Shown here one piece after another: positions 1-4,624 of a stretch of 4,624 nucleotides of DNA. Below the pieces are notes generated by a model. That model was not told the origin of the DNA and searched no databases. It was given only the letters and a program-made list of their open reading frames with translations. The position numbers and the translations under genes were made by a program. This stretch comes from a virus (taxonomy: Duplodnaviria; Heunggongvirae; Uroviricota; Caudoviricetes). How positions within the stretch are numbered: the first letter of the stretch is position 1; the number at the start of each line of letters is the position of its first letter. The DNA lies in IMG/VR virus record IMGVR_UViG_2711768000_000008; one strand, 5' to 3'.

Positions 1-151
1 CTCTTTAGAGTAACGTTGGGTTTTTCTGCTCATTATTAGCTCCTTCTGATGCCATTCTATTTCAGGAAGGAGTGTCCGTTAAACTCAGGCTACCTCAGGT
101 TATTCGCTTCTGGGCATGGGCGGATCAACAAATGATAGACGGTAATGCAGA

Positions 152-174
152 TTGTAACGCTCGCGGCGTTACAA
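152..174. repeat. Palindrome TTGTAACGC-n5-GCGTTACAA (iteron-like)
   Basis: Perfect 9-bp inverted arms at 152-160 and 166-174, read directly. The core 7-mer recurs at 363-369, 375-381 and 398-404. Confidence 0.5.
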
Positions 175-362
175 AAAGTGCAATAGATCGCATCACTTTT
201 ATGTCTGGTTTTGCTGATGCGTTAATTCAGGTTGGATGGCTGGTCGAAAATGACGGAGGGCTTTCTCTACCTAACTTTGAACGTCATAACGGAAAAAGCT
301 CTAAAAAAAACGGGCGGTTACAAACGAGCGAGTAACAAAAATACGCGAACTGAAACGAAAAG

Positions 363-405
363 GTAACGCTGCCAGCGTTACACAAACGGATCAAAAAGCG
401 TTACC
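363..405. repeat. Palindrome GTAACGCTG-c-CAGCGTTAC plus an extra GCGTTACC half-site (iteron-like)
   Basis: Perfect 19-bp palindrome at 363-381, with a further GCGTTACC at 398-405. It sits in an A-rich, purine-rich stretch of the initiator gene. Confidence 0.5.
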
Positions 406-780
406 AGAGGAAGAGGAAGAGGAAGATCTAAATACTGATCTCCCCCTCGCCAAAAACGAGCGTCTAAAAAATTCGAGCCGGAGGCTATTGAGCTGCCCGA
501 TTGGTTGCCGGAAACACTCTGGCATGAGTGGGTCCGGTTCAGACAGGCATTGCGAAAACCGATTCGAACGGAGCAGGGCGCTAACGGGGCGATACGGGAA
601 CTGGAAAAATTCCGTCAGCAGGGTTTTACACCTGAGCAGGTGATTCGACACAGCATCGCCAATGAATACCAGGGCCTGTTCGCGCCGAAAGGTGTTCGGC
701 CTGAGACGTTGCTCCGACAGGTTAACACCGTCTCGTTGCCGGACAGTGCGATCCCGCCAGGCTTCAGGGGGTAACGGACC

Positions 781-1618: not shown

Positions 1619-2041
1619 ATGGCGAAACCTTTTACTCCCGAACAGCGGGAAGAACTGAAGACGCGAATTGTGGAACTCGTGCATCAGGACGGTCGGGTCA
1701 CGATTCGGCAGTTGTCAGATGAAACAGGTATCAGTCGTGCGTCTGTCGGTCGCTTATGCATAGAACTGGTCGCAAGTGGTGATGTATATAATTCTGGCTA
1801 CGGCTTATTCCCGTCTGAACAGGCTCGCAAGGACTGGCAAAGCGCCCGCAAAAAACTCTCGAGAGTAAAGGTGAGGAAACCGGTTGTTGTTGATCCGGAC
1901 CTTATCTGGTCATTACCTGACGGAGAAATACGCCGCTACGACAGGCGCCTGAATATAATCTGTCGCGAGTGCCGGAAGAGCGAAGCTATGCAGCGTGTAC
2001 TGGCTTTCTATCAGGGTAATTTTCAGGAGGCGATACTGTGA
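1619..2041 (+). CDS. Small HTH-like protein, tentatively Ren family (Rex-exclusion negation); family assignment unverified
   Basis: AGGAGG at 1609-1614, 4 nt before ATG 1619; 140 aa. The segment VTIRQLSDETGISRASVGRLCIEL looks like a helix-turn-helix. The C-terminal CRECRKSEAMQRVLAFY resembles my recollection of the lambda Ren C-terminus, and the position right after the P/DnaC-like gene matches lambda gene order. Confidence 0.6.
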   Translation: MAKPFTPEQREELKTRIVELVHQDGRVTIRQLSDETGISRASVGRLCIELVASGDVYNSGYGLFPSEQARKDWQSARKKLSRVKVRKPVVVDPDLIWSLPDGEIRRYDRRLNIICRECRKSEAMQRVLAFYQGNFQEAIL

Positions 2042-2098: not shown

Positions 2099-2455
2099 AT
2101 GGAAATAAAACCAGAAGATGAGTTAAGCAATATCGTTTTATTTCCGGTAAAAGAGGATGACCCTCGTAATCAGGTTAATTTTCTTTATGAGCCATCGGAA
2201 AGACCATATTGCCATCACGCCTCTGTACGGGTTGACGAAAAAGAGCGTCAGGTCCGCTGTAAAATCTGCGGTGCGGTTGTGGAGCCGTTTGACTGGATGC
2301 TCTCTGTGGCAAAAAGAGAAACCAGACTGGCAGATGATGTAAGGCTATTGCGCCAGGAGGAACAGGAAAGGCGGAGAAATATAGAAAAGCTGATACAGAT
2401 TGAGCGTAACGCGAAAGCGCGGATACGCAGGGCGACAAAATCCAGAACTGAATAA
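2099..2455 (+). CDS. Hypothetical Cys/His zinc-ribbon protein with a charged coiled-coil-like C-terminus
   Basis: AGGAG at 2088-2092, 6 nt before ATG 2099. Contains C-H-H ... C-x2-C (CHHASVRVDEKERQVRCKIC) and then an Arg/Glu-rich helical tail. An in-frame ATG at 2042, immediately after the upstream TGA stop, is an alternative start (AGGAGG sits 12 nt upstream of it). Confidence 0.55.
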   Translation: MEIKPEDELSNIVLFPVKEDDPRNQVNFLYEPSERPYCHHASVRVDEKERQVRCKICGAVVEPFDWMLSVAKRETRLADDVRLLRQEEQERRRNIEKLIQIERNAKARIRRATKSRTE

Positions 2456-2560
2456 TTAAATTTAGCACTGTTAAAAATTTAATCCTTAACCGGAGGGATT
2501 TCTGCACCCTCAAATCATCAGGAGACCACCCGAAAGGGCGGGGAGCAGTCACACATCTGT

Positions 2561-2589
2561 TTCCGATAGCCCCGTTCTAATGCTACACT
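2561..2589 (+). promoter_or_regulatory. Candidate sigma70 promoter for the QueH-like gene
   Basis: TTCCGA at 2561-2566, a 17-nt spacer, then TGcTACACT (extended -10) at 2581-2589. Pattern match only. Confidence 0.3.
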
Positions 2590-2602
2590 CTTTGATATTT
2601 TT

Positions 2603-3289
2603 ATGACCCCAATAAACATATTTATGACAGTTGCTGATTTCAAACGGCCCAAATTGGAGCTCCCAAACGGGGCAAACAAACTACTACTGCACTCTTGCTG
2701 TGCTCCATGTTCCGGTGAGGTGATGGAGGCGCTTCAGGCCTCGGGAATCGACTACACCATCTTTTTCTACAACCCGAACATTCATCCTCAGAAAGAGTAT
2801 TTAATTCGTAAGGATGAGAATATTCGCTTTGCTGAACAACACGGCGTGCCGTTTATTGATGCTGATTACGACACAGACAACTGGTTTGAACGAGCCAAAG
2901 GAATGGAATGGGAGCCCGAACGAGGGATCCGTTGCACCATGTGTTTTGACATGCGTTTTGAGCGGACAGCGCTGTACGCCGCTGAAAATGGTTTCAGTGT
3001 GATCAGCAGTTCACTGGGCATTTCACGCTGGAAAAATATGCAGCAGGTTAACGACTGTGGGCGGCGAGCCGTCGCGCATTATCCGGGCATGGTGTACTGG
3101 GATTATAACTGGCGCAAGCAGGGCGGCTCGTCCCGTATGATTGAAATCAGCAAGCGCGAAAAATTCTATCAGCAGGAATATTGTGGCTGTGTGTATTCTC
3201 TGCGCGATACCAATCTACACCGCAAATCTCAGGGACGCCCTCTTATCAAAATTGGTCAACTCCACTACGGTAAAGAAGAGAAGGAGTGA
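2603..3289 (+). CDS. DUF208/QueH-family protein (putative B12-independent epoxyqueuosine reductase)
   Basis: 228-aa ORF with the N-terminal signature [14 protein letters not shown], which I recognise as the QueH/DUF208 hallmark, plus further Cys pairs (CTMC, CGC). No clear SD at ATG 2603; ATG 2624 is an alternative start. Stop TGA 3287-3289. Confidence 0.72.
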
Positions 3290-3310
3290 TTTTATGGGGC
3301 ACCTTTCTGA

Positions 3311-3340
3311 TTGATTTCATATTGGCGAGGTAAGTAGAAT
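3311..3340 (+). promoter_or_regulatory. Candidate sigma70 promoter reading into the masked region
   Basis: TTGATT at 3311-3316, an 18-nt spacer, TAGAAT at 3335-3340. The same hexamer pair recurs at 3776-3803. Confidence 0.3.
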
Positions 3341-3438
3341 GACTGCGGGTGCTTGAGGCTATCTGCTTCAGGCATGAACACCAAAAGGCAGATAGAGAAA
3401 AGCCCCAGTTAACATTACGCGTCCGGCAAGACGCTTAA

Positions 3439-3688
3439 NNNNNNNNNNNNNNNNNNNNNNNNNNNNNNNNNNNNNNNNNNNNNNNNNNNNNNNNNNNNNN
3501 NNNNNNNNNNNNNNNNNNNNNNNNNNNNNNNNNNNNNNNNNNNNNNNNNNNNNNNNNNNNNNNNNNNNNNNNNNNNNNNNNNNNNNNNNNNNNNNNNNNN
3601 NNNNNNNNNNNNNNNNNNNNNNNNNNNNNNNNNNNNNNNNNNNNNNNNNNNNNNNNNNNNNNNNNNNNNNNNNNNNNNNNNNNNNNNN
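3439..3688. other. Run of 250 N (undetermined or masked sequence)
   Basis: Literal n characters, flanked by a candidate promoter upstream and a strong terminator downstream. Confidence 1.
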
Positions 3689-3710
3689 CATCCTCAACGC
3701 ACCCGCACTT

Positions 3711-3767
3711 AACCCGCCCATCGCTGTGATCTCTCAGCGTTTCGGCGGGTTTTTTGTTGTTTATTTC
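3711..3767 (+). terminator. Rho-independent terminator
   Basis: Outer stem CCCGCC (3713-3718) pairs with GGCGGG (3744-3749); inner stem CGCTG (3722-3726) pairs with CAGCG (3735-3739). Followed by TTTTTTGTTGTTTATTT. An in-frame TAA at 3710-3712 sits just before the stem. Confidence 0.7.
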
Positions 3768-3775
3768 CGGTGAAT

Positions 3776-3803
3776 TTGATTCGCGCACCTTCGCAGATAG
3801 AAT
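3776..3803 (+). promoter_or_regulatory. Candidate sigma70 promoter for the downstream cassette
   Basis: TTGATT at 3776-3781, a 16-nt spacer, TAGAAT at 3798-3803, directly after the terminator. Confidence 0.35.
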
Positions 3804-3837
3804 CGACTCACTTAAGTAGCGCGCAGGGAGAAGAGGG

Positions 3838-3882
3838 ATGGACCCCGAACAGGGGAGAGCTATTTATCTGGAAGGATTCTGA
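3838..3882 (+). CDS. Possible 14-codon leader ORF (MDPEQGRAIYLEGF)
   Basis: Strongest SD in the region (AGGGAG 3825-3830, GAGGG 3833-3837) precedes ATG 3838. Its TGA stop at 3880-3882 ends 2 nt before the next ATG. Confidence 0.2.
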   Translation: MDPEQGRAIYLEGF

Positions 3883-3884
3883 AG

Positions 3885-4172
3885 ATGAAAATCGAAGAAT
3901 TGCGTGAAATTTTTAGTGAAAATGGCCTCTATGCTGTGCGCGTTGAGAATGGAGCGATTGTCAGCCATTGCCGCATTAGATGTTTGCAATCTCAACAAAG
4001 GAAGAGCGGTGCTGTGTTATTTTATTTTTGTAATGGACTTCTGACGGACGGTTTTATTTTGCGTGAGGACGAATTTGTCACATCATTACGGGTTTTGAAA
4101 GAGATTGGTTTTAAGGCTGGTTTTCTGCTTTTGCTGAAGAATAAACTCATCTACAATCTTGAGCAGGATTGA
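3885..4172 (+). CDS. Hypothetical 95-aa protein, AT-rich, no family recognised
   Basis: ATG 3885 is the first start in an ORF that opens at 3816; GAAGG at 3871-3875. Visibly AT-richer than the neighbouring genes. Stop TGA 4170-4172. Confidence 0.55.
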   Translation: MKIEELREIFSENGLYAVRVENGAIVSHCRIRCLQSQQRKSGAVLFYFCNGLLTDGFILREDEFVTSLRVLKEIGFKAGFLLLLKNKLIYNLEQD

Positions 4173-4210: not shown

Positions 4211-4564
4211 ATGGCACATATACAACTGGTCAAACAAACCTCTTCCGGATTACTTCTCCCGGCGACGCCGGAGAGTTGCGATTTTCTGCATCAAATCAAA
4301 ATAGGTGAGTGGATACACGCAGACTTTAAGCGTGTGTGTAACTACGCATTCCACAAGCGTTTTTTCAAACTCCTGCAACTGGGTTTCGATTACTGGACTC
4401 CGGTCGGTGGGGCGATCACGCCTCGCGAACGAAAACTGGTGTCCGGTTTCGTTGATTACCTGTGTGAATCAGTAGGCCGGGAACATACGCCAGCTCTGAG
4501 CGAAGCCGCAGAGCAATTGAGGTGTACTGGCAATAGCGGACACTACCATTTGTTCTTTTTTTAA
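4211..4564 (+). CDS. Hypothetical 117-aa protein, no family recognised
   Basis: GGAG at 4200-4203, 7 nt before ATG 4211. The ORF track starts it at TTG 4169, which has no SD. Ends in a T7 run (FFF then TAA 4562-4564). Confidence 0.55.
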   Translation: MAHIQLVKQTSSGLLLPATPESCDFLHQIKIGEWIHADFKRVCNYAFHKRFFKLLQLGFDYWTPVGGAITPRERKLVSGFVDYLCESVGREHTPALSEAAEQLRCTGNSGHYHLFFF

Positions 4565-4624
4565 GCAGCCATCTGATGATATTTTTCCCTGAAGGCTGCC
4601 GGGGAGATATTCCCCAGACGAGAG

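Follow-up and report, generated by a model that had tools for sequence, protein, structure and literature searches.

Enzymes of the QueH family reduce the epoxide of epoxyqueuosine (oQ34) to the cyclopentene of queuosine (Q34) using an iron–sulphur (Fe-S) centre, and the member with a solved structure is the chromosomal QueH of Thermotoga maritima (PDB 7lc5 and 7lc7). Escherichia coli and Shigella cannot synthesize vitamin B12 (cobalamin) de novo, and QueG is their only other reductase of epoxyqueuosine (oQ). Here, we describe a queH gene carried by a lambdoid prophage. In IMG/VR virus record IMGVR_UViG_2711768000_000008 (Caudoviricetes), of which the whole stretch analysed, 4,624 nt long, is called the window, the gene occupies positions 2624–3289 of the plus strand and encodes a protein of 221 aa, predicted from Pfam, PDB and AlphaFold2 (AF2) comparisons and from its intactness to be an Fe-S, B12-independent epoxyqueuosine reductase. 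It is probably the cargo of a moron of approximately 740 bp, consisting of promoter and queH and captured once, which would give the lysogen a B12-independent conversion of oQ to queuosine (Q).

Two groups of described systems frame this locus. QueG (YjeS) performs the QueH reaction on the same set of tRNAs (PMC4646009) and is found alongside queH in all queH-positive E. coli genomes; unlike QueH, to which it is not homologous, it depends on cobalamin and two [4Fe-4S] clusters, and it is a universal chromosomal gene whereas queH is mobile. The QueG step is given as B12-dependent in the statement of that report that cites Frey et al. 1988 (PMC4646009), and E. coli and Shigella make Q de novo (PMC9508795). 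The folE, queC, queD, queE and dpdA genes of phages 9g and CAjan are, like queH here, phage-borne genes of 7-deazaguanine metabolism. However, they serve preQ0-type DNA bases and stand in clusters with DpdA, whereas the window encodes a lone enzyme for the last step of a tRNA modification.

Family, fold and metal site of the prophage QueH

A first-pass annotation, made from the sequence alone, had assigned the gene to the QueH (DUF208) family, and this identity was borne out at every level of comparison. Pfam family PF02677 matches residues 27–201 over profile positions 1–174 of 175 (E value 1.9e-65), with a score of 220.6 bits against a curated cut-off of 23.5 bits. The sequence also matches the solved T. 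maritima enzyme, PDB 7lc5, with an E value of 5e-22 at about 30% identity. When the AF2 model of the product (pLDDT 77.9, pTM 0.80) was compared with known structures using Foldseek, the top five matches were all T. maritima QueH (7lc7, 7lc5, 9d86, 9deu and 9dco; E values 2.6e-12 to 9.2e-11, target-normalised TM 0.82–0.84, rmsd ~2.8–3.7 Å), and the next were generic PP-loop ATPases at an E value of 7e-5, seven orders of magnitude weaker. The predicted fold is that of QueH, an adenine-nucleotide alpha-hydrolase-like Rossmann core. An NCBIfam scan of the protein gave no match, which we take to reflect the lack of a matching model and not as contrary evidence.

The cluster-binding cysteines on which the family assignment had depended are all kept (C25, C26, C29, C104, C107, C187 and C189), as judged from alignment to 7lc5 and to family representatives. 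The CCAPC motif at 2696–2710 of the plus strand (within HSCCAPC, codons 2690–2710) contributes Cys25, Cys26 and Cys29, which align with T. maritima C9, C10 and D13; the CxxC pair at 2933–2944 (plus strand; within RCTMC, 2930–2944) contributes Cys104 and Cys107, equivalent to C87 and C90; and the CGC pair at 3182–3190 (plus strand; within YCGC, 3179–3190) contributes Cys187 and Cys189, equivalent to C169 and C171. The T. maritima residue numbers are those of the 7lc5 sequence alignment, and we take these seven residues to be the metal site of that enzyme; Li et al. 2021 reportedly divided them between the [4Fe-4S] cluster and an extra iron. Cysteine is found at the Cys104 and Cys107 positions in 138 and 134 aligned representatives, respectively, and at the Cys187 and Cys189 positions in 85–86 of 87 and 86 of 86 representatives reaching that region. 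Both pairs are invariant in a further alignment (A1).

The prophage protein thus resembles T. maritima QueH in having a full-length domain, the same predicted fold and six cysteines in the arrangement CC...CxxC...CxC. It differs in the seventh residue, which is Cys here and Asp in T. maritima, and in carrying a 20-residue C-terminal tail. Among representatives of clusters at 50% identity, 116 have Cys and 3 have Asp at the last position of the motif, and judging from these counts the Asp-to-Cys difference is no defect, CCAPC being the majority form of the family. Members of the QueH subfamily from Enterobacterales are 76–80% identical to those of alpha- and other gamma-proteobacteria (loci L057–L088: Sphingomonas, Stenotrophomonas, Lysobacter, Paracoccus and Pseudomonas). 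This is unusually high for taxa so far apart, and suggests that the subfamily is either extremely constrained or widely transferred.

The family is characterized and the exact protein already carries the name QueH in RefSeq, so that the annotation itself is not new: WP_012421537.1, ‘epoxyqueuosine reductase QueH’ (MULTISPECIES Enterobacteriaceae / Shigella sonnei), is found on at least 1000 contigs. Phage resources are less informative. The HannyBb copy of queH, in an isolated phage, is annotated ‘hypothetical protein’, and the profile of PHROG 3217 (‘unknown function’) begins at Met34 (residues 34–221, positions 2723–3289) and so lacks CCAPC. Phage annotations of queH seem to use a late start or the label ‘hypothetical’, which would mask the identity of the gene in databases.

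The open reading frame (ORF) containing queH was called at 2603–3289 on the plus strand (228 aa), whereas the RefSeq gene starts at the ATG at 2624 (221 aa). We prefer 2624, and reject a start at 2603, because orthologues on chromosomes and plasmids align starting at the ATG at 2624, because the ATG at 2603 is found in the phage lineage only (ATT or another codon stands there in a divergent E. coli prophage copy, L174, in plasmids and in chromosomal copies), and because one phage copy (L154) has a 1 nt insertion between the two ATGs. The upstream in-frame ATG and the six codons after it (2603–2623, plus strand) are therefore probably 5′ leader and not coding. An origin of the 2603 ATG by a 21 nt duplication (repeat D1) was also considered and rejected, as the orthologues show a point change from ATT to ATG.

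A cassette of queH with its putative promoter, and its origin

The unit that moves between replicons is short. Two Klebsiella pneumoniae IncF plasmids (loci L175 and L176, gene at 8001–8669 in both) carry a 92–93% identical queH, preceded by the same upstream promoter block and lying next to the IncFII repA region; these plasmids are conjugative. In a blastn comparison of the window with these loci, 2560–3296 (737 bp) aligned at ~83% and nothing aligned beyond. This interval of the plus strand is the sole block of nucleotide homology common to the lambdoid-phage and Klebsiella IncF-plasmid copies, and we therefore define the cassette as approximately 740 bp of promoter and coding sequence; the first-pass annotation had drawn nearly the same limits, 2561–3289. 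In the phages, 2553 is the exact left limit of homology to the window in 65 of 83 loci.

With borders at 2553/2560 and 3296, the cassette appears as a discrete insert with its own putative promoter between conserved phage genes, and in its sharp mosaic borders and patchy presence it further resembles lambdoid morons, the independently transcribed accessory genes of temperate phages that include lambda bor and lom. It departs from them in that no terminator of its own was found and in its cargo, a tRNA-modification enzyme instead of a surface or virulence protein. Flanking repeats around the cassette (insertion sequence (IS) ends, att-like and attC-like sites) yielded nothing meaningful. Prophages with queH are integrated at no fewer than three sites (the ybhA side, ompW and ttcA) and have differing virion modules, and the gene is also present in isolated phage HannyBb.

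The first-pass annotation had proposed that queH has its own promoter, and comparison of the upstream regions of phage, plasmid and chromosomal copies makes this plausible. The putative promoter consists of an extended −10 element, TGcTACACT (2581–2589, plus strand), and a weak −35-like hexamer read from the sequence, TTCCGA (2561–2566, plus strand), 17 nt upstream of the −10. The hexamer matches TTGACA at three of six positions and reads TCCCGA in the plasmids and in the allele most common among the phages. The upstream sequences of the 83 phage copies fall into eight variants, in every one of which TGcTACACT is unchanged. The element recurs as TGCTACACT, TGCTACAAT or TGCTAAAAT, at an equal distance from the ATG, in chromosomal and Klebsiella-plasmid copies, namely in Scandinavium, Kluyvera, three Enterobacter species, Symbiopectobacterium, Erwinia and the Klebsiella plasmids, the remaining flanks being unalignable. 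More broadly, TGnTAnnnT occurs at −45 to −36 in 18 of 81 chromosomal loci, and anywhere from −80 to −1 in 21 of them, where control windows further upstream predict 2.7, an approximately eightfold enrichment in the 80 nt before the start. This is good comparative evidence, and it suggests that queH brought its native promoter along; the transcription start is predicted near 2595–2598. An Rfam scan at E values up to 1 found no riboswitch (preQ1 or cobalamin) or other RNA before queH, the only match being sok, downstream.

The first-pass annotation had taken Enterobacteria normally to use QueG and had regarded a phage-carried, B12-independent enzyme as unexpected. E. coli does rely on QueG, as all of its complete genomes (5426 of 5426) contain queG. 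The queH coding sequence is found in 995 of them (18%), usually as a single copy and nearly always on the chromosome, and since queG is in every genome, queH duplicates an existing function in this species. For Enterobacteria at large the case was overstated, as chromosomal, non-phage queH genes 80–92% identical to that of the window are widespread in the Enterobacterales, including Scandinavium, Kluyvera, Enterobacter, Erwinia, Providencia, Photorhabdus, Serratia and Dickeya. Amino acid identity to the window protein is 92% in Scandinavium, 91% in Kluyvera, 89–90% in Enterobacter, 86% in Erwinia and 84% in Providencia. These chromosomal genes share with the prophage gene the start codon and an extended −10 about 35 nt before the ATG. 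In contrast to its position between phage replication and nin genes here, they occupy metabolic or core-gene sites: between purL and glrK in Erwinia, between tmcA and purC in Providencia, and among metabolic genes in Enterobacter (a DeoR regulator and a GH28 gene) and Scandinavium.

Among 50,697 phage records, this type of queH was found in one, that of HannyBb, and more distant QueH homologues were found in 24 others, mostly unannotated faecal contigs. The gene is commoner on plasmids: 296 plasmid records have a QueH homologue, 99 of them from Klebsiella and 62 from Escherichia, with others from Bacillus, Ligilactobacillus and Acinetobacter. In a neighbour-joining tree, which is distance-based and carries no support values, the phage alleles form one tight clade within the Scandinavium, Enterobacter and Kluyvera group. 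Because the phage clade is tight and nested among Enterobacteriaceae copies, the tree points to a single capture of queH by a lambdoid phage from an Enterobacteriaceae chromosome. One prophage copy stands apart. In an E. coli sequence type (ST) 70 genome, a Rac-like prophage at ttcA (L174, 20001–20669) has a divergent allele of 222 aa with 91–93% nucleotide identity to the window; the two are homologous only from the extended −10 (2576) onwards, and a DUF1971 gene lies downstream in place of hok/sok. This allele may represent a second capture or a recombinant.

Selection on queH and its prophage surroundings

All 83 phage copies are intact over the full 221 codons, and they comprise 19 nucleotide alleles and only 6 protein variants. 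The window allele and the commonest allele, which are the two main ones, are separated by 19 synonymous and 2 non-synonymous substitutions. Across the 83 copies, the median ratio of non-synonymous to synonymous substitution rates (dN/dS) is 0.02, and the synonymous divergence of the two main allele groups is ~0.15, the mark of purifying selection.

The prophage of the window is itself decaying. The best genomic match is E. coli FDAARGOS_944 (L001), which is 99.9% identical over 2456–3438 and has a complete prophage beside ybhA/modC. Relative to that intact prophage, the O-like replication gene of the window (72–774) has two extra A in the run at 302–310 and a 10 nt deletion at 445, and is consequently split into two frames (ORFs 72–335 and 505–774), so that the prophage is probably defective. 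The queH gene is nonetheless 100% identical in nucleotide sequence to the FDAARGOS_944 copy. An intact queH alongside a broken replication gene and an IS600 insertion fits selection in the host, and not only during phage growth.

Annotation of the window and of FDAARGOS_944 confirmed the position of queH between the replication and nin genes of a lambdoid prophage. The O-like gene is followed by a DnaC-like ydaV gene (from 781, partly masked), a DUF977/Ren-like gene (1619–2041, plus strand; Pfam DUF977 E value 1.1e-33, PHROG 142) and a small zinc-ribbon gene (2099–2455). The DUF977 gene is the usual left neighbour of the cassette: it is upstream of queH in 75 of 80 IMG/VR loci, and in 62 of these it ends 150–200 nt before the ATG. 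The two masked stretches (1212–1602 and 3439–3688) correspond in FDAARGOS_944 to the rest of ydaV and to hokD. Their lengths differ from those of their counterparts (391 N against 314 nt and 250 N against 287 nt), which may mean that the mask does not preserve length or that indels lie beneath it, with small differences possible there.

Directly downstream of queH, outside the cassette, is a hok/sok type I toxin–antitoxin locus (3311–3700, plus strand), most of it masked. Rfam family RF01794 (sok) matches at 3347–3406, cut by the mask; the match is full length in FDAARGOS_944, where a hokD coding sequence is annotated at the matching place. Homology of the phage loci continues to 3438 in 80 of 83, and queH precedes hok/sok in the same number. 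A promoter-like site, TTGATT-18-TAGAAT, is present at 3311–3340, within the hok/sok locus. Since no terminator follows queH, its transcription may run on into the hok leader. In the commonest IMG/VR allele (L133), the sequence after the hok promoter diverges to GAACCGCCCCGGGTTTCCTGGAGAGTG..., presumably an IS629/IS1203-type end; if so, an IS has inserted in the hok/sok of that copy.

Further downstream are an ORF of 95 aa (3885–4172) and a DUF1367/NinB-like gene, which is interrupted at 4517/4518 by an IS3-family IS600 end (4518–4624); 4517 is the last position homologous to the intact prophage. This element is typical of Shigella, in agreement with the Shigella sonnei name given to the exact QueH protein, and the two together suggest S. 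sonnei as the origin of the window. The queH prophages also carry tRNA genes (Ile, Arg, Thr and Gly) near the Q-antiterminator and lysis region (L001, 23423–23733; L173, 25426–25675), and none of the prophage tRNA genes at these two loci is for a queuosine-modified tRNA (Asp, Asn, His or Tyr).

Probable function and significance of a mobile queH

We favour a model in which the captured cassette, now between the DUF977/Ren-like gene and hok/sok in the early-right region, would be transcribed in the lysogen from its own putative promoter. Through a [4Fe-4S] cluster and an adjacent iron site, QueH would reduce oQ34 to Q34 without cobalamin on the host tRNAs for Asp, Asn, His and Tyr. As QueG needs B12 and the host cannot make B12 de novo, a lysogen with the cassette would be able to complete Q whatever its supply or uptake of B12. 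The outcome would be a small benefit of lysogenic conversion, which would explain why queH is intact even in a decaying prophage.

Several observations weigh against this model. A generic sigma-70 scan did not call the queH promoter, an omission that reflects a −35 matching at only three of six positions; no Shine–Dalgarno sequence is recognizable before 2624; no terminator-like site was found by scanning 2300–3900, and the segment 3270–3350 folds no better than shuffled sequence (z = −1.06). As the generic scan found neither promoter nor terminator, the argument for a promoter with a weak −35 is a comparative one, drawn from conservation. Reduction of oQ by this particular allele is likewise argued from family membership. 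Moreover, we know of no demonstration of a fitness difference between oQ- and Q-tRNA in E. coli, and the gut usually contains corrinoids, which weakens the argument from B12 scarcity.

Because queH is also co-directional with the phage early-right operon, lytic transcription could occur as well as, or instead of, expression in the lysogen. The gene might then be a lytic auxiliary gene, expressed mainly, after induction, on the antiterminated early-right (pR) transcript and finishing Q on host tRNA so that the NAU/NAC codons of the phage are translated better, with no benefit to the lysogen intended. Its position between co-directional replication and nin genes, the lack of a terminator between it and its neighbours and its presence in the isolated phage HannyBb would suit such a role, which is compatible with expression in lysogens. 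Nevertheless, the promoter came along from chromosomal and plasmid settings without phage transcription, and queH is undamaged in a prophage with a broken replication gene, as selection in the lysogen would predict; we therefore regard a mainly lytic function as unlikely. A still slimmer chance is that QueH has been repurposed, either for another epoxide or nucleoside substrate or for counter-defence, for example by altering the anticodon seen by toxins that cleave tRNA, colicin E5 among them. The duplication of QueG in every host, carriage by both phages and conjugative plasmids, and proximity to addiction and exclusion genes (hok/sok and the Ren-like gene) could all be read in this way. However, the protein is 89–92% identical to the Scandinavium, Kluyvera and Enterobacter enzymes and 84–86% identical to the core-locus copies of Erwinia and Providencia, with identical catalytic residues, no extra domains and no sequence sign of changed specificity.

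The adjacency of hok/sok in 80 of 83 loci, together with the lack of a known phenotype, raises the question of whether queH is a functionless passenger that persists by linkage to an addiction locus. This is very improbable, given a dN/dS of ~0.02 at a synonymous divergence of ~0.15, with 0 of 83 copies disrupted, and given the existence of queH without hok/sok in the Rac-like prophage and on plasmids. Hardly any probability attaches to the suggestion, made in the first-pass annotation, that queH is one visible component of a larger 7-deazaguanine system for DNA modification or anti-restriction, with partners in the masked sequence or outside the window. We know of no oQ-type DNA base. By annotation, four complete (pro)phages, namely the complete prophages of FDAARGOS_944, O104:H4 and ST70 and the isolated phage HannyBb, lack folE, queC/D/E, dpdA and tgt, and in the 99.9%-identical genome the counterparts of the masked stretches are the rest of ydaV and hokD. 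In phages, DNA modification is the usual purpose of Q-pathway genes (folE, queC/D/E and dpdA; PMC6884629). The survey of DNA-modifying viruses by Hutinet et al. 2019 met with neither QueA nor QueG nor QueH among those analysed (PMC6884629). A lone last-step enzyme under strong purifying selection leaves tRNA as the only plausible target.

A search of the open-access literature found no description of a phage or plasmid cassette of promoter plus queH, although an earlier mention is possible, and none of the presence of queH beside the universal queG in 18% of E. coli, of its single chromosomal origin or of the purifying selection acting on it. More speculatively, and with a low probability, queH could be seen as a mobile ‘B12-independence’ cassette of the Enterobacteriaceae mobilome, selected for full Q modification without cobalamin. 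The B12-scarce settings in which it would matter include extra-intestinal sites and the loss of BtuB/TonB, which would be favoured by phage and colicin attack. If true, queH would be the first auxiliary gene of a phage or plasmid with a demonstrated action on queuosine in host tRNA and not on DNA, and oQ and Q would have to differ in decoding.

DNA modification is the role now generally assigned to phage ‘queuosine genes’, and a lone queH, which phage annotation pipelines overlook, departs from that reading. The hosts of queH-bearing prophages include O104:H4, avian pathogenic E. coli (APEC), enteroaggregative strain 042 and probably Shigella sonnei, and amount to roughly a fifth of E. coli genomes. 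Natural strains that differ only in the cassette could reveal whether the cell is affected differently by oQ and Q and whether B12 supply limits the completion of Q. The queH cassette would be a clear-cut example of host tRNA modification being adjusted by mobile elements.

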